Counted from the stretch's first letter, positions 28,578 to 49,812 are shown. The stretch is 58,386 nucleotides of DNA from a bacterium (GCA_024639335.1 JAHEIN010000002.1:13630-72015); one strand, 5' to 3'. Numbers and translations are program-made. Notes: generated by a model not told the origin, from the sequence alone.

Positions 28578-28587
28578 GTCGTCCTCT

Positions 28588-33419: not shown

Positions 33420-34658
33420 ATGCGCGAAGCGTTCTTCAATCTGAGCACCGATTGGAAAGAAGGCATCAACTGGGCGAATGTCCGCGACTGGCGGCTCAAG
33501 CGTGCCCATGCCGAGATGGAGAAGGCGGGGCTCGGCGCCCTCGTCCTCTTCTACGACGAGAACATGCGATACGTCTCGTCGACACTCACACCTGGATGGA
33601 ACCGACTCAAGCCGGGACTGAAGTACGTCGTGCTCCCGGCCGGGAAGCCCCCGATCGTCTACGAGCAGGGTGACATCGGCTTCCACCTCGAAGTCCACAA
33701 CCCGTGGATCCCCAAGGAGAACATCCGCTACTCGTACGTCTGGATCAAGGGAGCCGTCGGCCCGGCCGCCGATCAGCAGGTGAACAAGTTCGTCGACTCA
33801 CTGGCGAACGATCTCGAGGACGCCGGAGTGACCGGTCAGACGATCGGTCTCGACTTCATCGACATCAACTTGATGAAGGAGTTCAACAAGCGCGGCATCG
33901 AATGGACCGACGGTATGACGCCGATGATGAACGCCAGGGCCATCAAGAGCCCCGACGAGGTCATGGCATTCCAGATCGTCGGGTCGATCTGTGACTACGT
34001 CCACTACGAGCTCACCAACTTCATGAAACCAGGCATGACCGAGAACGAAGTTGCGGCGTTCGGTTTCGAGAAGCTGTACTCGATTGCGGGCATGGAGGAC
34101 GTCGAAGACGTCATCGTGTCGTCGGGCCCCAACGCCTGGCCGAACTGGCGCAACTTCTCCGACCGCATGATCCGCCCGGGTGAGCTGGTCATCATCGATC
34201 TCGCAGCGTTGACGTGGAATGGGTTCAAGTCGTGTTGCTACCGCACCTATTGCGTAGGCGGCACGCCGACCGACGAGCATCAGGCGACCTACGACGCTGC
34301 CCATGAGTGGTTGTGGGACTCGATCGAGATGGTCAAGCCGGGGGCCAGCACTGCCGAGGTCGCAGAAAAGTGGCCGTCCGCCATGGAGTACTGGGGCTAC
34401 GAGGAAGAGGATCAGGCCGCCGCCAACAACTGGGGTCACGGACTCGGGCTCGCCCAGTACGACCCGCCGGTCATCTCACGGATCTGGTCCTTGGACCACC
34501 CCGTCGAGATCCAGCAGGGAATGACCTTTGCGCTCGAGACCCAGAACGGCAAGCTCCACGATCACGGTGTCAGGCTCGAAGAGATGCTCTATGTCACCGA
34601 GACCGGCTACGAGATGGTGACCACCTACAAGCAGCACGAGATCATCTCGATCACCTGA
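33420..34658 (+). CDS. M24-family (creatinase/prolidase fold) hydrolase, non-canonical metal site
   Basis: 412 aa with a creatinase-like N-domain plus a pita-bread domain (GHGLGL, FALETQ). GAGGGAGAGAG RBS. Confidence 0.8.
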   Translation: MREAFFNLSTDWKEGINWANVRDWRLKRAHAEMEKAGLGALVLFYDENMRYVSSTLTPGWNRLKPGLKYVVLPAGKPPIVYEQGDIGFHLEVHNPWIPKENIRYSYVWIKGAVGPAADQQVNKFVDSLANDLEDAGVTGQTIGLDFIDINLMKEFNKRGIEWTDGMTPMMNARAIKSPDEVMAFQIVGSICDYVHYELTNFMKPGMTENEVAAFGFEKLYSIAGMEDVEDVIVSSGPNAWPNWRNFSDRMIRPGELVIIDLAALTWNGFKSCCYRTYCVGGTPTDEHQATYDAAHEWLWDSIEMVKPGASTAEVAEKWPSAMEYWGYEEEDQAAANNWGHGLGLAQYDPPVISRIWSLDHPVEIQQGMTFALETQNGKLHDHGVRLEEMLYVTETGYEMVTTYKQHEIISIT

Positions 34659-34662
34659 CCGG

Positions 34663-36330
34663 GTGCTGCTCGATCTCACCGACGTTCGAGCAGAAGACCC
34701 CGGGCTGACCGGCGCCAAGGCGTCGTGGTTGGCCCGGGGTCTTCGCGCCGGGTTGCCGGTCCTCCCCGGAGCGGTGGTCCCGGCGGCGGCGTCGCGACCT
34801 GTGATGCAGCATGGCGTCGAAGTCATGGAGTCACGGGGCTCGGGCGGCGCCAGGCTCGCCATCAGCCAGGAGCCGCTCGACGCCGATTTGGGGGACGCCG
34901 TCGTGGCAGCAGCGCGCGCTCTGGGCGAGACACTCGTCGTGAGGTCGTCGAGCATGCTCGAGGGTGGCGGTGAGTGGTCGGGTGCATTCACCTCGTACCT
35001 GGATCTGAGCCCGGAGGAGACTCCGGTCGGCGTTCGGGGCTGCTGGGCTTCGGCGTTCACGGTCCACACCCTGGAGCGCTACGAGGCATCTGGAGTCGAA
35101 CCCGGGTCGGCTCCGATGGCTGTGCTCATCCAACCGGCCTTGACGCCGGAATTCGGAGGCGTTGCCAAGCTGGCAGACGGCGAAGTCTCCGTGATCGGTG
35201 TCGAAGGCTCGCCTGTGCCGCTGGTCCAGGGTTGGGATCCGGGCGTACACGCCCAGGTCACCGAATCCGGTGTCGTGAAGGGAGACTCCGCCGTCTCGGT
35301 GCTCGGCGAATCGGTGATCCGTTCGGTCGCCGATGCACTCCGGAGCGCCGAGCGGGCGATCGGGGCAAACACCTGTGAGTGGGCAATCGCCGGCGGGGAG
35401 GTCGCGCTGCTCCAACTCGGGCGCGCCGAGTTCCGTGAGAAGCAGGCGTTGGCCGTGCCCGAGGAGTTCGCTTCTCCGGAGATCGCCGGCCTCGCCCGTC
35501 TCGTACGGCGCTTCCCGGGGCCGCTCGGCGAGGAGTTGGTGCTGCCGTGGGCGGTCGCGAGCCCAGCCTCCTTCTTGGAAGTCGTCGAACCGATCGCCGT
35601 CGACCCGTTCGAAGCCTTCGTCGAAGCTTCCCAGCAAGCCAGAGCGCTGACCGCGGAGGTGTGGGGAGCTCGGAAGGCCGACTCGTCGGACCGCGCCATC
35701 GAGGCGATTCGCCAGTTGCGGGGAGATCAGCCGATGGAGGCGGTCGGGGTGATGTCAATGCTCCGAGCACCCGATGCCGAGCGTTCCCGCACCATGCTCG
35801 GTCTCCTCGCAACGGTGCGCGCCGCTCTCGTCGAGGCCGGAGCCGTTGGCCGGCCGGACCAAGCCTGGCACCTGTCTTCCAAGGAGATCACCGACGTCCT
35901 TCGCTCCGGGCGGGCGTCTGAGATGAGGTCGCGGATCGGCTTCGACAGGTGGGAGCCGTTCGATGCGGCCGTGGTGGTCGCGCACGGAAGGTCGATGGAC
36001 GCGGTGTCTGCGGCATCGGGGATCGGAGTCGGCCGGCTGTGCTTCGTCGATGACCCGAAGACCGCATCGGACTTCAGGCCGAGGGATGTCGTGGTCGGGC
36101 TCAGGCCGACGCCGAAGCTGGCGCCGTTGTTGTGGGATGCCTCCGCGCTCATCACGACGGGCGGCGGTCCGGCTGCCCACCTGTTCGAGTCCGCCCGGGC
36201 GCTGGCGATTCCGGCGTTGGCTGCGGTCGATCTCGAGAGCCTGGTCGGCACCGACCTGGTGTCGGCGAGCGGCAGGTTCTCGATCGCCGTCGACGGCAAC
36301 GAGGGCCGGCTCTGGGTGATGGAATGGTGA
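34663..36330 (+). CDS. PEP/pyruvate-binding (PPDK_N ATP-grasp) protein with C-terminal PEP-utilising swivel (phosphohistidine) domain
   Basis: 555 aa. The N-terminus has TGAKASWLARGLRAGLPVLPG and VVRSSSMLEGGGEWSGAFTSYL. The C-terminus has ALITTGGGPAAHLFESARALAIPAL. Confidence 0.75.
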   Translation: MLLDLTDVRAEDPGLTGAKASWLARGLRAGLPVLPGAVVPAAASRPVMQHGVEVMESRGSGGARLAISQEPLDADLGDAVVAAARALGETLVVRSSSMLEGGGEWSGAFTSYLDLSPEETPVGVRGCWASAFTVHTLERYEASGVEPGSAPMAVLIQPALTPEFGGVAKLADGEVSVIGVEGSPVPLVQGWDPGVHAQVTESGVVKGDSAVSVLGESVIRSVADALRSAERAIGANTCEWAIAGGEVALLQLGRAEFREKQALAVPEEFASPEIAGLARLVRRFPGPLGEELVLPWAVASPASFLEVVEPIAVDPFEAFVEASQQARALTAEVWGARKADSSDRAIEAIRQLRGDQPMEAVGVMSMLRAPDAERSRTMLGLLATVRAALVEAGAVGRPDQAWHLSSKEITDVLRSGRASEMRSRIGFDRWEPFDAAVVVAHGRSMDAVSAASGIGVGRLCFVDDPKTASDFRPRDVVVGLRPTPKLAPLLWDASALITTGGGPAAHLFESARALAIPALAAVDLESLVGTDLVSASGRFSIAVDGNEGRLWVMEW

Positions 36331-36387
36331 CCCGGCGTCGTTGAGGGTGCAGCGTCTTCGCACCAGTGCGTGATTGGGATGCGCAGC

Positions 36388-36407
36388 GGGCGCGGCGAGC
36401 CGCGCCC
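36388..36407. terminator. GC-rich hairpin between convergent genes (possible bidirectional terminator)
   Basis: GGGCGCGG-CGAG-CCGCGCCC forms a perfect 8-bp stem. There is no clear U-tract. Confidence 0.4.
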
Positions 36408-36463
36408 CTACCGGTACCGCCGGTTCGTCGATCGATGTGAACTCACGTCGCCGGTTCCCACGT

Positions 36464-36838
36464 TCATATGTCGTCGGCAACGACCCAGATGGTCTCCGTG
36501 GGTGCCGGGACCCACAGTTCGTAGAACGAGAAGTCGGCGTCGCCGGTGTTCTCGAACCAGTGGACCTCACCATCGTCGGCCAGCGCCACATCGCCCTCGT
36601 TCAGCGTGTAGGTGCGGTCGTCGAGATGCAGGATTCCTGTGCCCGCATCGACGAAGAAGAAGTGCTTCGACCCGACGTGGTAATGGGCGGCCGCGCTGTC
36701 GCCAGGGTGATAGGTGATGTGGTCGGCCTTGATGTCGGCCGTCCCGAACAGCTCCTCTGTGATGAGATCGACTCGATCACGGCGGTCACGTGTGGATCTG
36801 ATTTTGGGGAGCTCTGCGAACGGAATGACCGACGGCAT
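36464..36838 (-). CDS. Cupin-domain protein
   Basis: 124 aa from MPSVIPFAEL with AAHYHVGSKHFFFVDAGTG. Confidence 0.75.
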   Translation of the reverse strand: MPSVIPFAELPKIRSTRDRRDRVDLITEELFGTADIKADHITYHPGDSAAAHYHVGSKHFFFVDAGTGILHLDDRTYTLNEGDVALADDGEVHWFENTGDADFSFYELWVPAPTETIWVVADDI

Positions 36839-36930
36839 GACCGAAAGGTACCTGCCGCGATCGGCATCCGCCGACGATTGGTGCACTTGTGTCGACTCGA
36901 AGCCCGTGCGGTACGGGTTAGCGTGATCGG

Positions 36931-38178
36931 GTGCCCGTTGCCGACTACCACCGCTCTCGGCGATCGGTCGTGGCGTTCGTCTCGTTCCTTGCGATCGTGA
37001 TGGCGTTCGGGGTGGAGGCGCTTCTTCCGGCCTTCGACCTGATCGGATCCGAGTTCCGATTCGATGCGATCGGAGCGGGTGTCTCGCTGCTGGTCACCGC
37101 CTTCCTGGTGGGGATGGGGATCGGCACCCTGGTCTGGGGGCCGGTCTCGGATCGATTCGGCCGCCGTTCGGTATTGATCGTCGGCTTCGCCCTGTACGGG
37201 GTCGGTGCTGTCGGTATGGCCCTGGCCTCGAGCATCGAGCTGTTGCTGGTGGCTCGGGTGGTGTGGGGGTTCGGCGCAGCTGCGCCCGGCGGGCTTCGGT
37301 ATGCGATCGTTCGAGACCTCTACTCGGGTGATGACATGGCGCGGATCATCGCCGTCGCCACGGCAGTCTTCATGATCGCTCCGCTCACGATGCCGATCGT
37401 GGGGGAGATACTCCTCTTCATCGGATCGTGGCAGATCATCGCTTTGACCGGGCTCGGTCTGGCCGCCGTCGCCGTCTCGTGGTCTCTCCGGTTCGGCGAG
37501 ACGCTGAGCTCCGAGCGGCGGCGTTCGCTCCGTATCGCCCCGATCATCGAGGGCGCTCGGATCGTGGGGCGGACGACCTCCTCTGCGGGGGCGATCGTGG
37601 CCTCGGTGTTCTTCTACGCCTCCTTCTTCGTGTGGCTCGGTTCGGCCCAGCCGATCATCGACCGGATCTACGGACGGGACGAGCAGTTCGTCTTGTTCTT
37701 CGGAGCGTCCGGTTTGGCGATGTCGCTCGCATTGGTCGTGTCGAATCGGGTGATTCCTCGGATCGGGACTCGATCTCTGGCGAGGCGTTCGGCCCTGTTG
37801 TTCCTGCTCTTGTGCCTCGTGGCCCTCGTGGCGACGATGCTCGACGGTGGCCTCGGCCTGTGGCCCTGGTTCCTGTGGGCGGCCGCGACGAATGCCATCG
37901 GTGCGGTACTGGGCACCTCGGCCGCAGCGCTGGCTCTCGATCCGGTCGGCGAGGTCGCTGGAACCGCAGCATCTCTGCTCAACTTCGCGGCGCTCGTACC
38001 AGGTTCCCTGCTCGCCGCTCTCGTCGACGCCAGGATCTCTGAAACCGTGACGCCGATGGTCGTCGGCTCGACGGTCTTCGGCATCCTCGGTGGGCTGGCG
38101 CTCTTGGTCAGTCAGCCGGAGTCGGCGCGCGCCCGCCCTGTCCCGGCGGACACGACCGGCCCACCGATCTCGATCTGA
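36931..38178 (+). CDS. MFS transporter (Bcr/CflA-like drug-resistance type)
   Basis: 415 aa with GPVSDRFGRR (MFS motif A). GTG start. Confidence 0.85.
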   Translation: MPVADYHRSRRSVVAFVSFLAIVMAFGVEALLPAFDLIGSEFRFDAIGAGVSLLVTAFLVGMGIGTLVWGPVSDRFGRRSVLIVGFALYGVGAVGMALASSIELLLVARVVWGFGAAAPGGLRYAIVRDLYSGDDMARIIAVATAVFMIAPLTMPIVGEILLFIGSWQIIALTGLGLAAVAVSWSLRFGETLSSERRRSLRIAPIIEGARIVGRTTSSAGAIVASVFFYASFFVWLGSAQPIIDRIYGRDEQFVLFFGASGLAMSLALVVSNRVIPRIGTRSLARRSALLFLLLCLVALVATMLDGGLGLWPWFLWAAATNAIGAVLGTSAAALALDPVGEVAGTAASLLNFAALVPGSLLAALVDARISETVTPMVVGSTVFGILGGLALLVSQPESARARPVPADTTGPPISI

Positions 38179-38277
38179 GCCAGGATGTCCGACGGTCCTT
38201 CCCGATCGCTGCTCGTTCGAGCTCCGCCAGACCCGGTTGGGGCCCTCTCCGCCCGCGGGTCCTGACAGAATCGGGGG

Positions 38278-39096
38278 ATGCACATCGAGACCGTGTCGAT
38301 CGATACACCCACGACGCCGCTGGATGGCCTGCTCTACCTGCCAGACGGGGATGTCAAAGGCGCAGTCCAGTTGATGCATGGGAACACAATGAACTTCTAC
38401 GTCGGGCCGCCCAGGTTCCTCCCGGCCCGACTGACGCAACTCGGCTTCGCCTGTCTGGCATACAACCGGCGCGGCCATGACGTGCTATCGAACCGCGACA
38501 GTCGCGATCTCGAGGGCGGTGCGTATCAGACCATCGCCGAAGCAATCGAGGACAACCACCTTGCCCGACGATGGATCGACGATCGAGGTCTCCCGGCACC
38601 GTTTGTCGTCGGGCACTCGAATGGCGGCATGTTGGGTGTCCGTCATGTGACCGAACACCCCGACACTCCCGGACTGGTGCTCCTCTCCGCCCATAGAGGA
38701 GGTCGGCTACTGATGCGGACGATGGCCGAGAACGGACTCATGGCGGCGGACCACTACGAGGAGATCACCGCAGTCGCCAGGGACATGATGCAGCGGGGCG
38801 ACGGCGCTGAGCTGATGATCGTGCCCGGATGGTGGTACGTGATCTCCGCTCAGACCTATGTCGAGTTCCTCGACAACTGCCCCGACATCGTCGAAATGGC
38901 GAGCCAGGTGCTTTGCGAAACGCTCTTTGTTCGGAGCGTCGAAGAGCCGCCCGACTTGTACCCGGCCGAGGAGTTCGCAGCGCGTAGTCGCCAACCCGTC
39001 GACATCAGAATCATCGAAGCCGGTGGCCACTACTACCTCGGGGGAGAGCGCCTGGTCATCGACACGGTTGCTGATTGGCTGGCGAACCGGGTTTGA
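38278..39096 (+). CDS. Alpha/beta-fold hydrolase
   Basis: 272 aa with the nucleophile elbow GHSNGG. Confidence 0.8.
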   Translation: MHIETVSIDTPTTPLDGLLYLPDGDVKGAVQLMHGNTMNFYVGPPRFLPARLTQLGFACLAYNRRGHDVLSNRDSRDLEGGAYQTIAEAIEDNHLARRWIDDRGLPAPFVVGHSNGGMLGVRHVTEHPDTPGLVLLSAHRGGRLLMRTMAENGLMAADHYEEITAVARDMMQRGDGAELMIVPGWWYVISAQTYVEFLDNCPDIVEMASQVLCETLFVRSVEEPPDLYPAEEFAARSRQPVDIRIIEAGGHYYLGGERLVIDTVADWLANRV

Positions 39097-39159
39097 TCCC
39101 CGATCGCAGACGATGCGAACGGACGCCACCCCTATGCTTGCCGAGCCGGAGGAGACGAA

Positions 39160-39828
39160 ATGCCGAACATCACGATGCTCGAAATCGACGACCTGATGGA
39201 GTCCGAGCTCGCCGGATTCGTCAAGAAGTGCCTGCGGCATCGCGCCCCCGACCCGGCGTTCCACGCCATCCAAGGGCACAACCCGACCCTGTCCAAGAAG
39301 CTCTACATCGCGTGGGGGACCGTCTTCAACACGGGCGTGATCGACCATGGGCTGAAGGAGATCATCCGCGTTCAGCTGTCGCGCGCTGCCGATTGCAACT
39401 ATTGAGGCAACGTTCGATCCGCTTCGGCGAAGCGGAACGGGCTCACCGAGGAGCGCATCGACGAGGGCATCGACCAATGGCGCACGAGCCCCAACTTCTC
39501 CGAGGCCGAGCAGATCGCACTGGAGTACAGCGAGCTCATGCAGTTCGCACCAGACAAGATCGACGCATCCTTCTACGAGCGGCTGGGCCGCCACTACACG
39601 CAGGCCGAGATCGTGGAGCTGGGCGTGTTCATCGGGTTCAACGTCGGCTATCACACCTTCTTTCGGACACTCGACTTCTACCCGATGTTCACCCCCGATG
39701 GGCGGCTCGTCAGCCAGGAGGAGTCCCGCCGGATCTACGGGGACACACCCATCTCACACAACGACGACAGAGTCGTCCGAGCTCTCGCAGAATCGCCAGA
39801 GGATGCTGATGATCCATCCCATCGGTGA
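39160..39828 (+). CDS. AhpD/carboxymuconolactone-decarboxylase (CMD) family protein with in-frame TGA (39403-39405) at the second Cys of the CxxC motif (candidate selenoprotein, C-N-Y-U)
   Basis: The 81-aa ORF 39160-39405 ends ...QLSRAADCNY-TGA. The same frame (ORF 39538-39828 is in phase) continues GNVRSASAKRNGLTEERIDEGIDQW...EIVELGVFIGF and aligns by eye with the adjacent paralog. GGAGGAGACGAA RBS. Hairpin downstream. Confidence 0.7.
39411..39439 (+). promoter_or_regulatory. SECIS-like hairpin 3' of UGA 39403
   Basis: Upper stem CCGCUU(C) 39419-39425 pairs with (G)AAGCGG 39429-39435. Apical loop GGC (or CGGCG). Lower stem CGUU 39411-39414 pairs with AACG 39436-39439, with a 4-nt CGAU bulge. 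The loop starts ~20 nt after the UGA. Confidence 0.5.
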
Positions 39829-40339
39829 AGACGTCGCCAGAGCGCCCGGCCTCATCACAACCGAGCAGTCGTTCACGCGACTGAGCGGCGGGGACACCAC
39901 CTTCCCCCGGATCCTCGCTCACGTCCCGGGCTACGCAGAAGCGATGTGGGACGCCATGTCCGAAGCGCTGTTCGAGGGTGGAGTCGACCACACGCTCAAG
40001 GAGATCATCCGAATACGCCTTGCGAGGACCGCAGCCGATCCCTACTTCGCAGGCCTGCGGTCGGTCCAGGCGGCTGAGTCGGGTCTGACCGAGGATCGGA
40101 TCGACGCCGGATGTGCCGACTTCGAAGACGATGCGCAGTTCAGCGACTCCGAGAAGTGGGCGTTGCGATATGCGTCGCGAATGTACGAGGACCCGGCCGG
40201 CGTCGACTCGGCCTTCTACGAGGAGGGAAAGCGGCACTTCACCGAGGCGCAGATCATGGAACTGGGCGGGCTCATCGCCGTCTTCCACGGGATGTCGGTG
40301 TTCATGTCGACTCTGACCGGCGGACTCGGTGGGACCTGA
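39809..40339 (+). CDS. CMD/AhpD-family paralog lacking the redox Cys pair (D-P-Y-F in place of C-x-x-C/U)
   Basis: MIHPIGEDV, with AGAGG 6 nt upstream. An alternative ATG is at 39803; the listed ORF begins at 39698. Contains LKEIIRIRLARTAADPYFAGLRS...EAQIMELGGLIAVF. Overlaps the 3' end of the preceding gene by 20 nt. Confidence 0.8.
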   Translation: MIHPIGEDVARAPGLITTEQSFTRLSGGDTTFPRILAHVPGYAEAMWDAMSEALFEGGVDHTLKEIIRIRLARTAADPYFAGLRSVQAAESGLTEDRIDAGCADFEDDAQFSDSEKWALRYASRMYEDPAGVDSAFYEEGKRHFTEAQIMELGGLIAVFHGMSVFMSTLTGGLGGT

Positions 40340-40354
40340 CACCGGGAGGGTCGG

Positions 40355-42637
40355 ATGAAGACCAGGACGACCGTGACGCACTGGGGGGCCTACGAGGTCG
40401 ACAGCGACGGCACGCATGTCACGGGCGTACGGCCGTTCTCCAAAGATCCCGACCCTTCTCCGATCGGGGCGTCGCTGGACGCCGTCACCAGGAGTCGGGT
40501 GCTCCGGCCGGCGATTCGCCAGAGCTGGCTGGATGGTGGTCCGGGAACCCGCGGTGACCTGCGCGGAGTCGAGCCCTTCGTCGAGGTCGCTTGGGACACC
40601 GCGCTGGATCTGGCGGCTTCCGAGCTCGATCGAGTGCGGTCGACGCACGGCAACCGCGCCATCTTCGGTGGTTCCTACGGCTGGTCGAGTGCGGGCCGAT
40701 TCCATCATGCCCAGAGCCAACTCCACCGCTTCCTGGCGGTGATCGGTGGGTACACCGACAAACGCGACACCTACAGCCACGCAGCGGGAGAGGTCATCAC
40801 CCCGCACGTCGTGGGACACGGCTACTGGGACCTCCAGCAGGCCCACACGTCGATGTCGGTGATCGCCCAGTACACCGATCTCGTGGTGTCCTTCGGCGGG
40901 ATTCCGCTGAAGAACGCTCAGGTGCAGAACGGGGGGATGGGGCGCCACACGCTGCGCGGCTGGCTCCAGGCCGCCCGCGATCGCGGGACCCGGTTCGTCA
41001 ACGTCTCGCCGACACGCGACGACGTCGCCGCCGAACTCGACCCTGAATGGCTCGCGCCACGCCCCGGCAGCGATGTGGCCGTCATGGCCGCCATGATCCA
41101 CACACTCGTGACCGAGGATCTCGCCGACGAGGGATTCCTCGAGACACACTGCGTCGGCTGGCCGGAGTTGCGGTCCTATGTCCTCGGGGGAGCCGATGGC
41201 ACGCCGAAGACCGCAGAGTGGGCGGGAGCCCTCTCGGATCTGGACCCCGATCGCATTCGCCGCCTCGCCCGGGAGCTCGTGGAGTCGCGGTCGATGCTGA
41301 ACATCTCATGGAGTCTCCAACGTTCGGACCACGGTGAGCAGACATGGTGGATGTTGATCGCGCTGGCGTGCGTCGTCGGACAGATCGGGCTTCCGGGCGG
41401 CGGTTTCGGCATCGGATACGGGGCCGTTGCGTCAGTGGGCAACGGCGCCCCCCGGCGTGCCTTTCCTGCTCTCGGGCGGCCGGTGAACCCAGTGGACGAC
41501 TTCATCCCCGTGTCGCGGATCGCCGACATGCTGTTGCACCCCGGAGCGCCGTTCACCTACGACGGCGAGACTCGCAGTTACCCGTTCATCGACTTGATCT
41601 ACTGGTCAGGTGGCAATCCCTTCCATCACCATCAGGATCTGAACCGGTTGACGACTGCCTGGCAGCGACCCTCGACGATCATCGTCAACGAGCCGTTCTG
41701 GACGAGCACGGCAAAGCGAGCCGACATCGTGTTCCCTGCGACGACTCCGCTGGAACGTCGTGACATCGGCGGATCGGCAAGAGAAGACTTCCTCTTCGCC
41801 CTCGAGCCGGTCATCGATCCGGTCGGAGAGTCCAGAGACGATTACCAGATCTTCTCCGATCTCGCGACGCGACTCGGAGTCGAAGCGGAGTTCACCGAGG
41901 GTCGCACTTCGGACGAATGGGTCCGCCACCTCTACGAATCCTTCGAGAGCCGGTACCCCGACTCGCCGACCTACGACGAGTTCGTCGAGGCGGGGTTCAT
42001 CCAGTATCCGGAGACCCCTGACGCCGTGAAGGTCCTGTTCGATGCCTTCAGGGCGGACCCCGAAGGCAGCCCGCTCCCAACCCCATCGGGCAGGATCGAA
42101 CTGGACTCGTCGACGCTTGCTCGTTTCGGGCATCCGGACTGTCCTTCGCATCCGATGTTCCTCGCGCCGCACGAGTGGCTCGGTGACGTCGGCGAGTACC
42201 CGCTTCATCTGTTGTCCAGCCAACCGTCGACCCGGCTCCACTCTCAACTCGATCACGGCGCGACCAGCGCAGCCAGGAAGATCGACGGTAGGGAGGTGAT
42301 GCGGATGCATCCGGCCGACGCCGCGGCGCGCGACATCTCCGACGGCGACACGGTTCGGGTGTTCAACGACCGTGGAGTCTGTTTCGCAGGCGTCGCGGTG
42401 ACCGACGGCATCCGGTCTGGTGTCGTCGATCTCCCGACCGGCGCCTGGTACGACCCGGTAGATCCGTCGATCCCCGGATCACCATGTCGCCACGGCAACC
42501 CGAATGTCCTCACCAGAGACGAGGGCACCTCTTCCCTTGCTCAGGGGCCTGTGGCGCAGAGCTGCCTCGTCCAGGTCGAGCGGGCACCCGATGCGCCGAC
42601 GCCCGACCCCCACGCTTCCCCCGACATCATCGGCTGA
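40355..42637 (+). CDS. Cytoplasmic molybdopterin (bis-MGD) S-/N-oxide reductase, BisC/TorZ-like (DMSO reductase family type III)
   Basis: 760 aa with no Tat signal and no N-terminal Fe-S Cys cluster. THWGAYEV, FGGSYGWSSAGRFHHAQSQLHRFL and DTYSHAAGEVITPHVVG closely resemble the biotin sulfoxide reductase N-terminus. Confidence 0.9.
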   Translation: MKTRTTVTHWGAYEVDSDGTHVTGVRPFSKDPDPSPIGASLDAVTRSRVLRPAIRQSWLDGGPGTRGDLRGVEPFVEVAWDTALDLAASELDRVRSTHGNRAIFGGSYGWSSAGRFHHAQSQLHRFLAVIGGYTDKRDTYSHAAGEVITPHVVGHGYWDLQQAHTSMSVIAQYTDLVVSFGGIPLKNAQVQNGGMGRHTLRGWLQAARDRGTRFVNVSPTRDDVAAELDPEWLAPRPGSDVAVMAAMIHTLVTEDLADEGFLETHCVGWPELRSYVLGGADGTPKTAEWAGALSDLDPDRIRRLARELVESRSMLNISWSLQRSDHGEQTWWMLIALACVVGQIGLPGGGFGIGYGAVASVGNGAPRRAFPALGRPVNPVDDFIPVSRIADMLLHPGAPFTYDGETRSYPFIDLIYWSGGNPFHHHQDLNRLTTAWQRPSTIIVNEPFWTSTAKRADIVFPATTPLERRDIGGSAREDFLFALEPVIDPVGESRDDYQIFSDLATRLGVEAEFTEGRTSDEWVRHLYESFESRYPDSPTYDEFVEAGFIQYPETPDAVKVLFDAFRADPEGSPLPTPSGRIELDSSTLARFGHPDCPSHPMFLAPHEWLGDVGEYPLHLLSSQPSTRLHSQLDHGATSAARKIDGREVMRMHPADAAARDISDGDTVRVFNDRGVCFAGVAVTDGIRSGVVDLPTGAWYDPVDPSIPGSPCRHGNPNVLTRDEGTSSLAQGPVAQSCLVQVERAPDAPTPDPHASPDIIG

Positions 42638-42678
42638 CCGGGACACCGCTCTCATCCGGAGGGAGCATGTCGGGAGGG

Positions 42679-43881
42679 TCAACCTTCGCAGACGATCAAT
42701 TCGGTCGGGTATTCCTGGGTGACCTCGACACCCGCGCCACTGAGTCGCATCGAGTTGCCGACCTGGACGCCTGCGTTCCCGTCGACCACATTCGGCTGAA
42801 CGACCAACAGGGTGCCATCTGGATAGGCGAAGTCATCGGGATGTGTCGCTCCTCGCGACGCCCGAGTTCGCACGATCGGAGGCAGGTACGCGCCGCCGAA
42901 TCCGTGCACCAGATCGTCCCAGATGTCACAGCCGGCGTCGGTGATGGATTCGGCGGCGTCCAGAACCTGCCCCACGGTGCATCCCGTCCGGAGCGTGGCG
43001 GTGATGGAATCGTATGCATCGAGGGCAATGGCATGGAGTCGCTCGTAACGCGGCGTGGGTCCGCTTCCGATCGTGAACGTGCGGAGGATCTGGCCTGCAT
43101 ATCCCCAGAACGTCGTGCTGATCTCGGTCACGAAGACGTCGCCGGCGGCCAGCCTGCGATCAGGGTGGTACTGGTGGGGCACGAAGAACTCAGGGTCGTC
43201 CATCGGAGTCGAGAGGCTGAAGTGGATGAGGTTCCAGCCGCGATGACCGAGGTACGTGTCCTCGACGATGCGTGCGATGTCGGTCTCGTTGATGCCGGGC
43301 CGGAGTTCGTCTGCGAGAGCGGCGACAGCAGCGTCGTTCATGCGGGAGGCGATGCGAACGAACGTCATCTCGTCGTCGCTCTTCACCAGGCGGAAGTCCT
43401 GATAGTGCCGATTCATGTCCTGGAAGCCGGCGTCCCCGAGCACGCCGCGGAGGACGCTCATGTCGCCATGGGGCACGACCCCGATGAGGCCGACGTTGGC
43501 GGCACCTCGACGATCGAGGAATTTGGCGACCGTCTCGGCCTGTTCTGGGGGCGTGTCACCGCCGTAGCGCACGTCCGCGATGATCGAGATCCGTTCCGCA
43601 TCCGGCAGGTGGTTCCACAACCGCACGAACAGCGTTGGCTCCGAGCTCGGTGACAGGACGACGTATGACTGAACCTGGCTGGGCCAGTTGGAGAAGTACT
43701 GGACCGAGGTCTCCAGAGGTGCAGTCGCGCCTCCGACCACGAGGGCGTCGAGGTCGTGGTCGGCCATCAGGGTCTCGGCGAAAGCGAACCGCCTGGCCAT
43801 CTCGCGAGCCGGGTACCGGGGAAACCCGTTGACCTGCTCGAACTCCTCCGAGCCCCAGTACGGCGGACCGTATTCAGACAT
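42679..43881 (-). CDS. M24-family (creatinase/prolidase fold) protein, metal ligands largely substituted
   Basis: 400 aa with a creatinase-like N-domain and ILRTFTIG / VHGFGG pita-bread landmarks. Confidence 0.75.
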   Translation of the reverse strand: MSEYGPPYWGSEEFEQVNGFPRYPAREMARRFAFAETLMADHDLDALVVGGATAPLETSVQYFSNWPSQVQSYVVLSPSSEPTLFVRLWNHLPDAERISIIADVRYGGDTPPEQAETVAKFLDRRGAANVGLIGVVPHGDMSVLRGVLGDAGFQDMNRHYQDFRLVKSDDEMTFVRIASRMNDAAVAALADELRPGINETDIARIVEDTYLGHRGWNLIHFSLSTPMDDPEFFVPHQYHPDRRLAAGDVFVTEISTTFWGYAGQILRTFTIGSGPTPRYERLHAIALDAYDSITATLRTGCTVGQVLDAAESITDAGCDIWDDLVHGFGGAYLPPIVRTRASRGATHPDDFAYPDGTLLVVQPNVVDGNAGVQVGNSMRLSGAGVEVTQEYPTELIVCEG

Positions 43882-43926
43882 CTGGCGCCGGTCGCACGAT
43901 CCTCGTACCAGCGTGGGAGCGGATGC

Positions 43927-44808
43927 TCATCGGCGCTCGATGCCGCCCAACCGCTCGAGGTGCCGACACAGGGCTGCCGCATCGAGGTCTCCCAACCCGG
44001 CCGACGATGCCTCCTGGTACACCGAGAGGGCAGTGTCCAGCAGCGGCGTCGGGGCTCCGACCGAGCGGGCGAATCCCTGGATGATGCCGGCGTCCTTCTT
44101 GATGATGTCGAGACGCGCCGACGGGGGTTCGTACTCGTCTGCCGCCATCATCGGCCCCCTGATCTCGAATATGCGAGACGAGCCGACGCCGTCGGAGATG
44201 ACCTTCTGAACAGTGGCCGGATCCATGCCGGCGGCGATTCCCATGGCATGGGCCTCCGCACTCGAGAGGTTGTGGATCGCCACGAGGAGGTTGGCGATGT
44301 ACTTCATGATCGATCCGTTGGGAAACGGTCCCAGGTAGTGGGTGGAGCGTCCGACCACGTCGAACACCCCGCGGGTGGCATCGAATGCTTCTTGGCTACC
44401 CGATGCCATCACGACCAGCGTGGCATCGGCGGCCTGAAGGCCGGTGCCGCTCACCTGAACGTCCATCAGCTCCACGCCGACCTCCGCAAATCGAGCCTTG
44501 GCCTTCTCCTTCTCTTCGATAGGCAACACGCCCATGTCGGCGGCGATGAGGCCTTCGTGTGCGCCGGCGACCACGTCTTCGGTCGCGGCGTGCAGCGCGG
44601 CCACGCTCGGGAGCGACAAGAGCACGACGTCGCTGGCTGCGGCCACGCCGGCACCCGACGAATGTGCGGTTCCGCCCCGGGCGGTGAGGTCGGCGTTGCG
44701 ATCGTCCACCACGTCGTAGCCGTGGACCTCGTACCCCGCCTCCATCAGGTGACCGGACATGGCGGTGCCCATGACTCCGAGGCCGATGATCCCGATTCGT
44801 TGGTTCAT
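43927..44808 (-). CDS. NAD(P)-dependent 3-hydroxyisobutyrate/6-phosphogluconate-dehydrogenase-like oxidoreductase
   Basis: 293 aa with IGIIGLGVMGTAMSGHL. AGGGAGCA RBS. Confidence 0.88.
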   Translation of the reverse strand: MNQRIGIIGLGVMGTAMSGHLMEAGYEVHGYDVVDDRNADLTARGGTAHSSGAGVAAASDVVLLSLPSVAALHAATEDVVAGAHEGLIAADMGVLPIEEKEKAKARFAEVGVELMDVQVSGTGLQAADATLVVMASGSQEAFDATRGVFDVVGRSTHYLGPFPNGSIMKYIANLLVAIHNLSSAEAHAMGIAAGMDPATVQKVISDGVGSSRIFEIRGPMMAADEYEPPSARLDIIKKDAGIIQGFARSVGAPTPLLDTALSVYQEASSAGLGDLDAAALCRHLERLGGIERR

Positions 44809-44829
44809 GGTGCTCCCTATCGCAGATCG

Positions 44830-44847
44830 TGCATCCTATTTGATGCA
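44830..44847. promoter_or_regulatory. Inverted repeat TGCATC-N6-GATGCA overlapping a minus-strand TAGGAT hexamer (44833-44838)
   Basis: Read directly. Lies 22-39 nt upstream of the minus-strand ATG at 44808. Candidate operator overlapping a -10 box. Confidence 0.3.
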
Positions 44848-44903
44848 TTGGGCCGGGCGTCCTGGGAACGCGGAATGTCTCACCGGGCGAGATCTTGACA
44901 CGA

Positions 44904-44932
44904 TCGACAGTCGATTCGACAACATATAGGAT
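44904..44932 (+). promoter_or_regulatory. Putative sigma-70-type promoter: TCGACA - 17 nt - TAGGAT
   Basis: Hexamers read at 44904-44909 and 44927-44932, 72 nt upstream of ATG 45005. Confidence 0.35.
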
Positions 44933-45004
44933 CGCTGGCGAACGGAGGGTGCGCATGAGCGATTGCACGGTGATTCCGGCCCGCATCGGACGGGCCTGAT
45001 CGGG

Positions 45005-46033
45005 ATGTACGGATACCGTATCGATCAATGGGGAGCCGAGCCGACCTGGCAACCGCTGCCGGACCCGGTCGTCGGGCCGGGTGAGGTGCTCATCGACGTC
45101 GAGGCATGCGGGGTCGGCCTGACCGTCCTCAACTGCATCAACGGTGATCTGTCGAATGATCCGGCGCGGTTGCCGAGAGTCCCGGGCCACGAGCTCGTGG
45201 GGCGCGTCATCGATGGCGGTCCCGGCACCGACACACTGGTGGGCAGGCGCGTTGTTGCCTACTTCTATCTCACGTGCGGCGCGTGTGCCATGTGCACCGC
45301 GGGTCGCGATTCGCTGTGTGAGCGTCTCGGAGGCTGGGTGGGGGTCCACACCGATGGTGGCTATGCGCCCCGAGTGGTCATTCCGGCTCACAACGCCATT
45401 CCGGTCCCGGACGATCTGGATCCGCTTTCAGCCACCGTGGTACCCGACGCCGTTGCCACGCCACTGCACGTCTCGGCGCGCGCAGGCATCGGACCGGACG
45501 ATCGCGTCGCCGTGTTGGGAGCCGGCGGCGGTGTTGGAATCCACATGGTGCAGGTTGGCCTATCCACCGGCGCTGCAGTCGCCGGGTTGGACATCGTCGA
45601 GGCGAAACTGACCCAGATCGAGCGCTTGGGTGCGACAGCAGTCGACTCCAACGACCTGACGAACCTCGATGCTTCAACGCTGTTCGCCGACGGTCGACCC
45701 TCGGTGGTCGTCGATCTGCTGGGGAGCGTTGAAGCGACCCGCTGGGGACTGGACTCCCTCGAACCCGGTGGGCGAATGGTTGCACTCACGACCTTCAGGG
45801 ATCGGCTCGTCCAGATCGAGTCGAGGGAATTCGTCTTCGGTGAGATCTCGATGATCGGATCGCGCTACGCCACGAGGGCCGAAGTCGCTGAAGCCGGTCG
45901 ACTCGTGGCGGCGGGTGACATCACCCCCGTGATCGGCGTGGTCCGTGGGCCGGGCGACGTCCTGGAGATCCACGAAGAACTGAGGTCCGGGACCGTTGTC
46001 GGTCGCGGTGCATTGGATTGGAGCAAGACATGA
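45005..46033 (+). CDS. Zinc-dependent alcohol dehydrogenase family protein
   Basis: Starts at MYGYRIDQWG. Contains GHELVG and the structural-Zn Cys cluster CGACAMCTAGRDSLC. Confidence 0.88.
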   Translation: MYGYRIDQWGAEPTWQPLPDPVVGPGEVLIDVEACGVGLTVLNCINGDLSNDPARLPRVPGHELVGRVIDGGPGTDTLVGRRVVAYFYLTCGACAMCTAGRDSLCERLGGWVGVHTDGGYAPRVVIPAHNAIPVPDDLDPLSATVVPDAVATPLHVSARAGIGPDDRVAVLGAGGGVGIHMVQVGLSTGAAVAGLDIVEAKLTQIERLGATAVDSNDLTNLDASTLFADGRPSVVVDLLGSVEATRWGLDSLEPGGRMVALTTFRDRLVQIESREFVFGEISMIGSRYATRAEVAEAGRLVAAGDITPVIGVVRGPGDVLEIHEELRSGTVVGRGALDWSKT

Positions 46034-47667
46034 CCGAGGTCAGAGAGATCGCAATACCGGATGACGTGGATGGGATCTTCGTCGGAGGGGGACACAACGC
46101 CCTGATCTGCGCCACCTATCTGGCACGCGCCGGCATGAAGGTGGTGGTGTGTGAAGCCTCCGATCGTATCGGTGGAGGAACGACCACCGATGAGATCACA
46201 CTCCCATTCTTCCGGCACAATCTGCACGCCTACTTCGTACGGTGGACTCCCGAGTACGCCGTGTGGAACGACCTCGGCCTCGGACGGTTCGGCGTCCGAT
46301 CCGTGTATCCGCCGGTGCAGAACGCTCTGCCGTTCGACGGTGGCGAGCGGGCGTTGGTGACGTACTCCGATCTCGACAGATCGATTGCCGAGATCGCGAA
46401 ACTGTCGCAGAGCGACGCCGAGTCCTACCGGCTGCTCCACGCCGAGTTCTCCGAGCTGACCAGGTGGGTCGACACGCCGTTGCGCTTCTCTGCGCCGATG
46501 CCTCCCGAACAACTCCACGATCTCCTCGGAAGGAGCCGACTCGGGAGGCGCTATCTCGAGTTGGACGGTCGGTCGCCGCTCGAAGTCGTGCGCGCCGCCT
46601 TCGAGAACGAGGCTCTGCGGAGCCTGATCCTGTTCAACGTCTCCGTTCGCGGGTACCTGCCCAATCTCGATGTCCCCGGTATCGGCTCGATCGCTGCGCT
46701 CGCCCTCGCCAACTCCCACCAGGGGCGAATGGTGGAGGGGGGGACATACGAGGTAGCAAAAGCGATTGCATCCGCACTCCTCGACGCCGGTGGAACGATT
46801 CTCACCGACGCTCGCGTGGAGCGGATCGAAGTCCTCAACGGGCGGGCAACCGGAGTCGAACTCGCCGACGGCCGCCGAATCGACACCACCGGCTTCGTGG
46901 CCAGTTCGGCCCCGGCGCCCATCACCATGCTGGAGTTGGTGGGCCCCGAGCATCTCGACCCTGGGCTGCGGGATGATCTCGCCGACTATCGGTGGCTCGA
47001 AGAAGCGCTCTTCGGTGTGCATTGGGCGCTCGCCGACAGGCCTCGTTTCACCGCAGAGGCCTACAACCCCGATACTCCAGATGCTCTCAATCTGGCCATG
47101 GGCTACGAGACATCTGATGATCTGGTTGCCCACTCCGAGGCGGTGAACGCGGCTCGAAACGTCGATGACGGCCCCATTCATTCCTCCATACCCACGATCC
47201 ACGATCCGACTCAAGCTCCGAACGGCAGGCACACGACCTTCGGCTGGCACTTCGTTCCCGGGCCACCCACGAGGGGAGCATGGGATTCGGCGGCCGTTCG
47301 GGATCGAGTCGACGCCATGGTCGGCACCTATCGGACCTATGCGCCCAACATCGAGGAAGCAACGCTGGCGGTCACCAGCCACTCGCCCGACGCCACCGAG
47401 AAGAGAGTGATCTCGATGCGGGGCGGCGACCGTCACCACGGCAGCTTCCATCCGGACAACTGGCAGTGGAGTCGGCCGACCTCGGCGATGCCGGGCTTCC
47501 GGACCGCGATCGAAGGGCTCTATCTGTGCGGGGCATCACAACACCCGGGAGGGAGCTTTCACGGCCAGCCTGGGTACAACGCGGCGGGTGTGATCGCCGC
47601 TGACCACGACGTGGACGCATGGTGGGGTCCGGTACACGCCGAAGTGGCTCTCGCCGACCTGGACTGA
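46030..47667 (+). CDS. Phytoene-desaturase-family (CrtI-like) NAD(P)/FAD-dependent oxidoreductase
   Basis: MTEVREIAI in an ATGA overlap with the ADH stop. Dinucleotide fold FVGGGHNALICATYLARAG. The listed ORF begins at 46018. Confidence 0.85.
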   Translation: MTEVREIAIPDDVDGIFVGGGHNALICATYLARAGMKVVVCEASDRIGGGTTTDEITLPFFRHNLHAYFVRWTPEYAVWNDLGLGRFGVRSVYPPVQNALPFDGGERALVTYSDLDRSIAEIAKLSQSDAESYRLLHAEFSELTRWVDTPLRFSAPMPPEQLHDLLGRSRLGRRYLELDGRSPLEVVRAAFENEALRSLILFNVSVRGYLPNLDVPGIGSIAALALANSHQGRMVEGGTYEVAKAIASALLDAGGTILTDARVERIEVLNGRATGVELADGRRIDTTGFVASSAPAPITMLELVGPEHLDPGLRDDLADYRWLEEALFGVHWALADRPRFTAEAYNPDTPDALNLAMGYETSDDLVAHSEAVNAARNVDDGPIHSSIPTIHDPTQAPNGRHTTFGWHFVPGPPTRGAWDSAAVRDRVDAMVGTYRTYAPNIEEATLAVTSHSPDATEKRVISMRGGDRHHGSFHPDNWQWSRPTSAMPGFRTAIEGLYLCGASQHPGGSFHGQPGYNAAGVIAADHDVDAWWGPVHAEVALADLD

Positions 47668-47776
47668 TGCTGAACCGATACACCTCGTCGCCTGCGATGC
47701 GGGGTCGGGCCGCATTCGGAGAGGAAACCCCCTCTGGTCGTCGGGCACGTGACACACCCTATATCGTGCAATATCG

Positions 47777-48784
47777 ATGACAGATGGCGTGAAATCCGTG
47801 GTGCCCCCGACGTCCGCGACGACAGACGACACCGCCAGATCCGGAGTGCTGGGGTCGCGATGGTTGTTGTGGGGCGGCTCGATCGTTGCCCTTGCGCTGT
47901 TGGTCTGGTGGATCCTCACTCAGATGACGGCTACTGCCTTCCTGGCGCAGATCCTCAACGGGCTCAGTTTCGGCGCAGTGCTCTTCTTCCTGGCCAGTGG
48001 GTTCACGCTCATCTTCGGCCTCATGCGGATCACCAACCTCGCCCATGGGGGTTTCTATCTGGTCGGTGGCTACATCGGGATCTCGGTGGTCCGTGCCACG
48101 GGCAACTTCTTCCTCGCAATGCTCGTCTCGGCGATCCTGATCATGCTCTTGGGTCTGGTGACCGAGCGCGTGCTGCTGCGTCCGATCCGAGGGCTCGAGA
48201 AGCCCGAGGTGCTCCTCACGATCGGCCTGACCTTCATCCTCGGCGACATGTCCCTGGCGATCTGGGGCGGTGACCCGACGCCCATCCCCAAGCCCGACTT
48301 CCTCAACGGCGCATTGAACATGGGAGGCTTCATCTACCCCCGATACCGCCTGTTCGTCATCGCCTGTGCTGTTGTGATCGGGGCGATTCTGTTCTGGGTC
48401 GAGAAGAAGACCCGTTGGGGAGCGATGGTCCGCGCCGGCGTGGACGACCGTGAGACGGTGGCGGCGCTCGGGATCAACATCAAGGCGGTGTTCACCGGCG
48501 CCTTCATGTTCGGCGCATTCCTCGCCGGGTTCGCCGGGGTCATCGGCGGAGCGTTTCTCACACTGCTCCCCGGTCAGGACTTCGAGGTGTTGTTGTTCGC
48601 TCTCGCAGTGGTGATCATCGGCGGACTGGGAAGCCTGAAGGGCGCCGCTCTCGGTGTGGTGATCGTGGGTCTGATCGACTCGTTTGGAAAGGCACTGATC
48701 CCAGAGCTCTCGTTCTTCACTCTGTTTGCGCCCATGGCGATCATCCTGGTCCTCCGCCCGCGCGGCCTGCTGGGACGCGAGTGA
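47777..48784 (+). CDS. livH: Branched-chain amino acid-type ABC transporter permease (LivH family)
   Basis: The core begins around FLAQILNGLSFGAVLFFLASG. ATG 47777 lies 9 nt after a TATCGT hexamer, so the mRNA may be near-leaderless. An alternative start at ATG 47924 would remove an extra N-terminal helix. Confidence 0.85.
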   Translation: MTDGVKSVVPPTSATTDDTARSGVLGSRWLLWGGSIVALALLVWWILTQMTATAFLAQILNGLSFGAVLFFLASGFTLIFGLMRITNLAHGGFYLVGGYIGISVVRATGNFFLAMLVSAILIMLLGLVTERVLLRPIRGLEKPEVLLTIGLTFILGDMSLAIWGGDPTPIPKPDFLNGALNMGGFIYPRYRLFVIACAVVIGAILFWVEKKTRWGAMVRAGVDDRETVAALGINIKAVFTGAFMFGAFLAGFAGVIGGAFLTLLPGQDFEVLLFALAVVIIGGLGSLKGAALGVVIVGLIDSFGKALIPELSFFTLFAPMAIILVLRPRGLLGRE

Positions 48785-49791
48785 TGTTGCGGTCCATCTC
48801 ACTCACGGGACGCGTGAAGCTCGGTTTTGCGGTGGTGGGAATCGCACTCGGGATTGCGGCCCCCTACATCTTCGACCGTTTCGTGATCGGATTGATCACA
48901 CTCGCCCTCGTCGGTGGGCTCTTCGCTCAGAGCATCGACCTCCTCGGAGGCTATGCGGGCCTCATCACCCTCGGCCATGCGGGTGTGTCCGGTACTGCCG
49001 CGTACGGTGTCGGCTACATGGCGGCGAAAGCCGGCGCCGGGTTTCCGGCGCAGATCGCCGTCGGATTCCTCGCAGGTATGGTCGCCGCGCTGATCTTCGG
49101 CGTCATGGCGATGCGGTCGGGCGGCGTCTATTTCATCATGGTGACATTGGCTCAGGGGATGATCGTCTGGGGTCTCTCCATCCGCCTGTTCCGAATCACC
49201 GGCGCCGAGAACGGTCTCACCGGGATCCCCCGGCCGCCCGGGGTGGAGCTCTACTGGCAGTATTACTACCTGACCTTCGCCGTCGTGGTGCTGTGCTGGG
49301 GCATGCTCGGGATCGTGGTGAATTCGCCGTTCGGCACCTCGCTGAAGGGTCTCCGAGAGAGCGAGACGCGAATGCGGATGCTCGGGTACAACACCACGGG
49401 CCAGAAGCTGTACGTGTTTCTCATCTCCGGTTTCTTCGCAACCGTGTCGGGCATCCTGCTGGTGTATCTGAACGGTTTCATCAGCCCATCCACGGTGATC
49501 TTGGCCGCGTCGGCGATCGGCGTCCTCCAAGCGATCCTCGGTGGGATCGGAACGCTCGTCGGACCCATGATCGGCGCTTTCATCATCGTGTTTGTGCAGA
49601 ACGTGGTGAGCATCTACGTCGCACGGTGGCCGACGCTCATGGGTGCGCTGTTCGTGGTGGTCGTTCTCTTTGCCCGCCGCGGTCTGGTCGGCGCCATCTC
49701 CGATGGATGGAATCGGTGGCTCAACCGAAACCAGGCTCCTGGCATCAATGAACCCGTTCTGACCTCGACCAACCAACCATCTGGGCCCTGA
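48781..49791 (+). CDS. livM: Branched-chain amino acid-type ABC transporter permease (LivM family)
   Basis: 336 aa, polytopic. Start overlaps the livH stop. Confidence 0.88.
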   Translation: MMLRSISLTGRVKLGFAVVGIALGIAAPYIFDRFVIGLITLALVGGLFAQSIDLLGGYAGLITLGHAGVSGTAAYGVGYMAAKAGAGFPAQIAVGFLAGMVAALIFGVMAMRSGGVYFIMVTLAQGMIVWGLSIRLFRITGAENGLTGIPRPPGVELYWQYYYLTFAVVVLCWGMLGIVVNSPFGTSLKGLRESETRMRMLGYNTTGQKLYVFLISGFFATVSGILLVYLNGFISPSTVILAASAIGVLQAILGGIGTLVGPMIGAFIIVFVQNVVSIYVARWPTLMGALFVVVVLFARRGLVGAISDGWNRWLNRNQAPGINEPVLTSTNQPSGP

Positions 49792-49812
49792 GCCCGCGGA
49801 GAAGGAGAGACA

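Follow-up and report, generated by a model that had tools for sequence, protein, structure and literature searches.

An AhpD-like selenoprotein, its paralog and a BisC-type reductase gene at an Acidimicrobiia-like locus

The locus and its selenoprotein

We examined a 58,386-nt stretch of bacterial DNA (GCA_024639335.1, JAHEIN010000002.1:13630-72015; the window, throughout), a high-GC (~65%) catabolic region whose nearest relatives are metagenome-assembled genomes (MAGs) of Acidimicrobiia. Five plus-strand genes at 36931-42637 encode, in order, a Bcr/CflA-like major facilitator superfamily (MFS) transporter (36931..38178; Pfam MFS_1, 2.4e-31; TIGR00710, 188 bits against a cutoff of 200.9), an alpha/beta hydrolase (38278..39096; Pfam Abhydrolase_6 / Hydrolase_4, with no PDB relative by sequence), a 222-residue AhpD-like selenoprotein of the carboxymuconolactone decarboxylase (CMD) fold that we call Sec-CMD (39160..39828), a paralog lacking its redox motif, CMD2 (39809..40339), and a cytoplasmic BisC/DorA-type S-/N-oxide reductase of the bis-molybdopterin guanine dinucleotide (bis-MGD) class (40355..42637). 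An earlier, sequence-only reading of the window had described these genes as an operon linking the selenoprotein to the reductase. The five open reading frames (ORFs) lie where it had placed them, with successive gaps of 99, 63, -20 and 15 nt (the Sec-CMD and CMD2 frames share 20 nt), and Pfam and NCBIfam agree with its family assignments. We find that Sec-CMD and CMD2 form the conserved unit, and that a BisC gene shares a probable operon with them only within a small clade.

The in-frame TGA of Sec-CMD (39403..39405, read as ...AADCNY-TGA-GNVRS...) is a true codon for selenocysteine. Scanning species-representative genomes, we obtained 74 related loci, 72 of them distinct and two duplicates, and TGA occupies the Sec position in every one (72/72, or 74/74 with the duplicates), always within C-[N/S/V]-Y-U-GNVRSA; no Cys form occurs among the 72. 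Coding conservation continues across the codon, with identities of 60-91% upstream and 63-87% downstream. Homologs in the databases are either C-terminal fragments that start directly past the TGA or full-length proteins with W at this position, from gene calls made under genetic code 4. Because gene callers split the gene or call W in this way, the family is systematically mis-annotated; the database proteins P0001-P0005 and P0127, for instance, have W at the Sec position (code 4, short contigs) or come from a gene split in two.

A selenocysteine insertion sequence (SECIS) hairpin follows at 39411..39439. The sequence TC(C/T)GCTTCGGCGAAGC(G/A)G, 13 nt past the TGA, forms a 7-bp upper stem (39419-39425 with 39429-39435) with a GGC apical loop, above a weak lower stem (39411-39414 with 39436-39439). 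Pairing in the upper stem is complete (100%) across 58 distinct sequences, and the one pair that varies does so by compensatory change, being U-A in 31, C-G in 25 and U-G in 2, and unpaired in none. Four-fold degenerate sites are invariant within the stem and variable outside it. The RNA fold z-score of the single window hairpin is unremarkable (-1.3); we call the SECIS because of the comparison across loci, not because of folding energy. The AhpD-like C-x-x-U selenoprotein recognised from the sequence at the outset is thus confirmed. No tRNA gene was found in the window, and no sel gene among the window ORFs scanned with Pfam. Rfam returned nothing at gathering threshold over the whole window, with a chance match only in the region of interest and no molybdenum cofactor riboswitch.

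Sec-CMD scores above the gathering threshold of Pfam CMD (PF02627; 35.8 bits, cutoff 23) and carries the AhpD signature E-x11-C-x2-C with Sec as the second Cys (LKEIIRVQLSRAADCNYU; motif E-x11-C-N-Y-U-G-N-V-R). C79 and U82 are invariant across the family and align to the C-x-x-C of PA0269 / P. aeruginosa AhpD. Structural comparison used an AlphaFold2 model of a homolog rather than of the window protein itself (P0001, 66% identical to Sec-CMD; predicted local distance difference test score 80), and this model retrieved AhpD-like structures from the PDB, with 7XW1/PA0269, 2PRR, Bmp8 and 6K40 as top matches (target-normalised template-modelling (TM) scores of 0.7-0.84). None of the NCBIfam selenoprotein models was matched by Sec-CMD above its cutoff (NF053654, 70.6 against 310; TIGR01926, 24 against 82).

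The Sec-CMD/CMD2 pair and its neighbours

CMD2 lies directly downstream of Sec-CMD in all related loci with enough sequence. It also exceeds the PF02627 threshold (25.0 bits against 23), and has D-P-Y-F where the E-x11-C-x2-C signature would place its C-x-x-C or C-x-x-U. The sequence-only reading had called this paralog Cys-less, which is correct for the redox motif and incorrect for the protein as a whole, since a single Cys is present at residue 104 (conserved in 36 of 70 homologs). In SAR324 and Betaproteobacteria the two proteins are a single polypeptide, as in the fused ORFs L002:9749-11029 (identical to L064) and L065 and the proteins P0006-P0009 and P0012. At the level of sequence, such fusion is Rosetta-stone evidence that Sec-CMD and CMD2 act together, and CMD2 is presumably a non-catalytic partner subunit with which Sec-CMD forms a heteromer. 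Because the two genes are invariably adjacent and in some lineages fused, we take the pair, not the five-gene set, to be the conserved unit. The module stands on its own and is found widely, in Acidimicrobiia, Nitrospinota, Rhodospirillaceae, Burkholderiales and SAR324.

The genes around the pair change from clade to clade. Upstream of it, about 33 Nitrospinota-like loci carry CoA-transferase, DLH, FAA-hydrolase and Aminotran_3 genes, a peroxiredoxin-like (Prx-like; AhpC/TSA, WCPFC) gene is the direct upstream neighbour in six Acidimicrobiia-type loci, and in Rhodospirillaceae an esterase gene takes this side. In about ten Acidimicrobiia-type loci, the window included, the pair is accompanied by a Zn-dependent alcohol dehydrogenase (Zn-ADH; 44963-46033 in the window, plus strand) and a CrtI/CrtO-family FAD oxidoreductase of 549 residues (46018-47667, plus strand). 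We considered the FAD protein as a relay flavoprotein and rejected it, as its family is that of the phytoene desaturases (CrtO/CrtI) and not of the disulfide reductases. Alpha/beta hydrolases were likewise rejected as a conserved partner of the pair across clades, being mutually non-homologous.

Other genes recur near the pair. At L001:4651-5208 and in about 30 Nitrospinota-like loci, a gene of the UGSC family (PF24696), a known selenoprotein family, has been called in two pieces some 5 kb upstream of the pair, co-directional with the CoA-transferase, DLH, FAA-hydrolase and Aminotran_3 cluster. Two Acidimicrobiia loci (L047:10895-11806 and L076) have a two-domain rhodanese, similar to 3-mercaptopyruvate sulfurtransferase, directly past CMD2. 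Genes for M24 (creatinase / ectoine-hydrolase-like) peptidases flank the region in the window (33420-34658, plus strand; 42679-43881, minus strand) and are found again near the Sec-CMD genes of L011, L066, L068 and L160.

Linkage to BisC-type reductase genes

The reductase consists of Molybdopterin_N, Molybdopterin and Molydop_binding domains (Pfam). Its best NCBIfam model is bisC_fam (TIGR00509), at 872.9 bits and so under the trusted cutoff of 1017.55, with TorA at 586 and DmsA at 361. It aligns end to end with the dimethyl sulfoxide (DMSO) reductase of R. sphaeroides (1EU1, 2e-188), keeping the Ser147 Mo ligand and the equivalents of Tyr114/Trp116 in the S-oxide pocket. No twin-arginine translocation (Tat) signal is present, residue 8 aligning to residue 12 of the mature R. 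sphaeroides enzyme, and there is no Fe4S4 domain (no PF04879 match), the protein starting at Molybdopterin_N. The earlier description of a BisC-type enzyme without signal therefore stands, and its premise that such an enzyme needs an electron donor has support in the literature. According to a review, the physiological donor of BisC is not known, bisC normally lies outside any operon with donor genes, and BisC contributes to tolerance of oxidative stress (PMC7759655). The E. coli enzyme is served by a relay of protein-(SH)2 plus a flavoprotein, and that of R. sphaeroides takes NAD(P)H directly (PMC6211008). Two more molybdoenzyme genes are present in the window (26028-28628 and 53724-54734, both on the minus strand), a xanthine-dehydrogenase-type one that includes a fused 2Fe-2S domain and one for a sulfite-oxidase-family Oxidored_molyb protein, as well as an AhpC/TSA-DsbD_N fusion gene (19570-20736, plus strand) some 19 kb from the Sec-CMD/CMD2 pair.

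Counted from the pair, 4 of the 74 related loci have a BisC-family gene within 10 kb, and only one of these has it in the same operon; the other 70 have none at that distance. The one is L003, the closest relative, with Sec-CMD, CMD2 and BisC in the window order. Colinearity between window and L003 is limited to 34076-36838 and 39160-49860 (the latter at 82%). It breaks off precisely at the start codon of Sec-CMD, and in place of the MFS and hydrolase genes L003 has 6.4 kb of sequence with an unrelated MFS gene in it. The window MFS gene found a tblastn match in none of the 74 related loci, and we rejected it as a member of the unit. In L018 and L019, which represent one lineage, an opposite-strand ADH gene stands between BisC and the Prx-like, Sec-CMD and CMD2 genes, and L047 has its BisC gene 5 kb from the pair and on the other strand. 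One member of the L018/L019 lineage is on a Verrucomicrobiales-binned contig that is colinear with the other's Acidimicrobiia contig over 13.4 kb at 76.6% identity, likely through mis-binning or recent transfer.

Among closer orthologs of the reductase, a set that also includes P0208, P0211, P0212 and P0214-P0219 (69-86% identical), three were taken in addition: one linked to the pair, one not linked, and one lying behind an OsmC gene. In L169 (BisC 73% identical) the order is hydrolase, Sec-CMD, CMD2, BisC; this contig is colinear with window positions 38277-42580 at 70.7% nucleotide identity, the window hydrolase has a 74% identical counterpart in the ORF immediately before Sec-CMD, and both flanks are different. 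In L168 (BisC 74% identical) the reductase gene stands without the pair, which is on another contig of the same MAG (L005), and in L170 (68% identical) an OsmC gene is directly upstream. BisC and the pair thus share an operon only in the window, L003 and L169. The operon proposed from the sequence is upheld in its core, as Sec-CMD, CMD2 and BisC are kept together in L003 and L169, the latter with the hydrolase, and loses its first gene, as the MFS gene lacks conservation already in the closest relative; within the clade, L168 is unlinked. A GGGAGGG ribosome-binding site precedes the BisC start codon, 15 nt past the CMD2 stop. A simple scan of 36300-43000 gave no promoter and no intergenic terminator (terminator-like matches fell only within the MFS ORF or on the opposite strand), and because of the GC content such a scan is uninformative for high-GC Actinobacteria. 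Judging by gene order, Sec-CMD, CMD2 and BisC, plus the hydrolase, probably constitute one operon in a small Acidimicrobiia clade, with the MFS gene an incidental neighbour.

BisC-family genes have at least 8000 homologs. We also counted linkage from the reductase, using 80 metagenomic BisC relatives of 46-71% identity, with at least 1.3 kb of sequence upstream in 57 and at least 1.3 kb downstream in 47. None has the Sec-CMD/CMD2 pair nearby, and 79 of the 80 have no AhpD-like neighbour at all by profile hidden Markov model (HMM) and Pfam census. A single locus, L095, has an AhpD-like neighbour, and of another subfamily. A census by tblastn alone had found no CMD gene near BisC and missed L095, which was recovered by profile HMM and motif scan; the scan of all BisC loci for E-x11-C-x2-[C/*] gave it as the only credible match. 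The Pfam census of same-strand flanking ORFs revealed no dominant partner of BisC, the neighbours being heterogeneous and mostly catabolic. In several marine relatives (L105, L108, L119, L120, L129, L136 and L146) BisC lies between ABC permease, GCV_T (aminomethyltransferase-like) and HpcH/HpaI aldolase genes, a setting suggestive of catabolism, of methylated S-/N-oxides for instance.

L095 is a marine metagenome contig with a BisC relative 52% identical to that of the window, and its gene order (L095:1784-5922) is CMD, Sec-AhpD-like, BisC, OsmC-like selenoprotein. The Sec-AhpD-like gene is of the C-x-x-U type, with its TGA at 2467, and is preceded by the gene for a 133-residue CMD protein; it belongs to a different subfamily (E-x11-C-D-Y-U-L-A-H) in which Cys forms exist, and BisC is absent from seven other sampled contexts of this subfamily. 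The OsmC-like selenoprotein has a U-x-x-T motif (GVGF-U-LLT, TGA at 5617). Elsewhere, Cys-type OsmC-like genes adjoin BisC relatives in L170 (4426-4935), L113 (~4261-4659) and L149 (7789-8307), and another lies 2 kb from a BisC relative in L088 (~4790-5156). In all, roughly 8 BisC loci out of about 86 have a thiol or selenol protein of peroxidase fold as a neighbour. As a raw count, the recurrence of such neighbours in unrelated contigs is suggestive.

Readings of the locus and known systems compared

The simplest reading of the locus, and one to which we give an even chance, is a lineage-specific oxidative-damage operon in which peroxide defence and sulfoxide repair are co-expressed. The products of 39160-40339 would together be a two-subunit AhpD-type redox protein, with a Cys-x-x-Sec catalytic subunit and a paralog that has lost the centre. 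By analogy with AhpD, this module likely reduces hydroperoxides directly or re-reduces Prx-like or OsmC-like partners, and its electrons may come from a lipoyl/NADH system. In the window's Acidimicrobiia clade the module would have been joined to the alpha/beta hydrolase and the cytoplasmic BisC-type sulfoxide reductase. If the hydrolase, Sec-CMD, CMD2 and BisC are, as they appear, one transcription unit, then peroxide removal and the repair of free sulfoxides (methionine-S-oxide, biotin sulfoxide or a related S-/N-oxide) would be expressed together, and electron transfer straight to BisC would not be needed. The gene content, the Sec codon with its SECIS, the pairing and fusion of the CMD proteins and the clade-limited linkage to BisC are observed; that the two proteins form a heteromer, that they act as peroxidase or reductase, that the genes are co-transcribed and that they serve in oxidative stress are steps that we infer.

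Several observations weigh against this reading. No peroxiredoxin or OsmC gene adjoins the pair in the window, where the nearest AhpC/TSA-domain gene is the one about 19 kb off. AhpD has a proton-relay His four residues past the second Cys (His137 of the M. tuberculosis protein, MtAhpD); Sec-CMD has Arg at this position (U-G-N-V-R), invariant in the family, where PA0269 has His, and its chemistry may therefore differ. Sec-CMD is also very highly conserved, as would equally be expected of a specific enzyme or of a protein with a fixed partner. Finally, the block from hydrolase to BisC has been kept although its flanks changed, and therefore the functional tie may be tighter than shared regulation.

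An alternative that we consider unlikely is coincidence: in a single ancestor, a mobile or rearranging BisC gene would have come to lie beside a selenoprotein pair of housekeeping function, and time would not yet have broken up the arrangement. The linkage is indeed confined to relatives whose BisC is at least 73% identical, L168 is an unlinked member of that same clade, and the neighbourhoods of both gene sets are very variable. However, the short gaps, the overlap and the ribosome-binding site are not readily explained in this way, nor is a block that outlasts the change of both its flanks, and peroxidase-type neighbours at BisC recur independently in unrelated lineages.

We think it improbable that the genes instead serve a small-molecule pathway, in which the hydrolase unmasks and BisC reduces a specific imported S-/N-oxide, with the CMD pair turning over the substrate enzymatically, as the debrominase Bmp8 or a decarboxylase would, instead of serving as a general redox protein. 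The hydrolase stays with the block in L169, the CMD-fold Bmp8 is among the nearest structures, and both the pair and the BisC relatives occur in catabolic islands (ABC/TRAP/Tct transporters, Amidohydro_2, M24/creatinase, Zn-ADH, GCV_T, CoA-transferases). Yet L003 dispenses with the hydrolase, the window hydrolase has no homology to the alpha/beta hydrolases that accompany the pair in other clades, the neighbours of the pair share no common pathway theme, and the E-x11-C-x2-U signature belongs to redox AhpD proteins.

Most doubtful in our estimation is the proposal of the sequence-only reading that the adjacent BisC is served by the Cys-x-x-Sec protein, together with CMD2, as its dedicated physiological reductant, which would cycle through a selenenyl sulfide as a 'protein-(SH)(SeH)' donor, for although the CMD2-BisC coupling, the block kept in L003 and L169 between different flanks, the independent placement of another Sec-AhpD subfamily directly upstream of BisC in L095, the OsmC-like dithiol proteins beside other BisC relatives and the missing donor in the literature (PMC7759655), with its E. 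coli relay through protein-(SH)2 and a flavoprotein (PMC6211008), all favour it, it stays conjectural because the MFS gene is unconserved, the pair is autonomous (no BisC within 10 kb at 70 of 74 loci, an opposite-strand gene in between in L018 and L019), the BisC relatives are, in 79 of 80 cases, without an AhpD-like neighbour, the L095-type family is without BisC in its seven other contexts, the two modules are unlinked in the MAG of L005 and L168, and NAD(P)H serves R. sphaeroides BisC directly (PMC6211008). The same reserve applies to a broader version, with small peroxidase-fold dithiol or selenol-thiol proteins as the 'protein-(SH)2' donors of cytoplasmic BisC (here the Cys-x-x-Sec heteromer, elsewhere OsmC-like proteins) carrying electrons from lipoyl/NADH to the Mo centre; we would be surprised to see it hold.

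The significance of the linkage is that a clade with bisC in an operon with a selenol/thiol redox pair, together with the scattered OsmC- and AhpD-like neighbours, provides concrete candidates for the BisC donor. If the adjacency reflects co-regulation only, the finding is an ordinary stress operon of uncultured Acidimicrobiia. Apart from BisC, Sec-CMD and CMD2 merit attention as an AhpD-like family found here only in Sec forms, with a presumably non-catalytic partner, natural fusions and an unusually clear SECIS.

AhpD-like C-x-x-U selenoproteins have been known since 2005 (PMC1088965, PMC2398784). Sec-CMD resembles those that Zhang and Gladyshev described from marine metagenomes in its CMD/AhpD fold, in having Sec as the second Cys with the SECIS just downstream, and in its Prx-like neighbours, a Prx-like / AhpD-like gene pair having been noted earlier in Global Ocean Sampling (GOS) data. 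It differs from them in scoring under the NCBIfam cutoffs, in having no Cys form in 72 loci, in its motif-less paralog and in having Arg for the relay His. Our literature search found no paper pairing AhpD-like proteins with BisC, in line with the earlier impression that the combination is undescribed.

With the AhpC-AhpD system of M. tuberculosis (with Lpd/SucB) the pair shares the E-x11-C-x2-C/U signature and an AhpD-like fold, and the peroxiredoxin-family gene directly upstream in six related loci recalls the position of ahpC upstream of ahpD. The window, in contrast, has no adjacent peroxiredoxin, Sec replaces Cys, Arg replaces His137, and two different subunits would stand in place of a homotrimer; the fold match of the P0001 model to MtAhpD is weak (TM ~0.4) and is better to P. 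aeruginosa AhpD/PA0269. Lipoyl proteins reduce AhpD, itself a peroxidase, and AhpD regenerates AhpC, as well as OsmC/Ohr in C. glutamicum (PMC8945050). That actinobacterial AhpD, with its several peroxidase clients, has a parallel in L095, where a Sec-AhpD-like and a Sec-OsmC-like protein occur together; there the genes flank BisC.

Dedicated redox-partner operons (torCA, dmsABC, ahpCD) are marked by wide co-occurrence, which BisC and the pair do not show, and by closely spaced same-strand genes in a block kept in relatives, which they do (L169, L003). The reductase itself has the features of the BisC enzymes of E. coli, Salmonella and R. sphaeroides, that is, a cytoplasmic single-subunit bis-MGD protein with no Fe-S domain, a Ser ligand and the conserved Tyr/Trp. 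It is distinguished from the known biotin / free methionine-S-sulfoxide reductases by its score under the bisC_fam cutoff and by the two AhpD-like genes that precede it.

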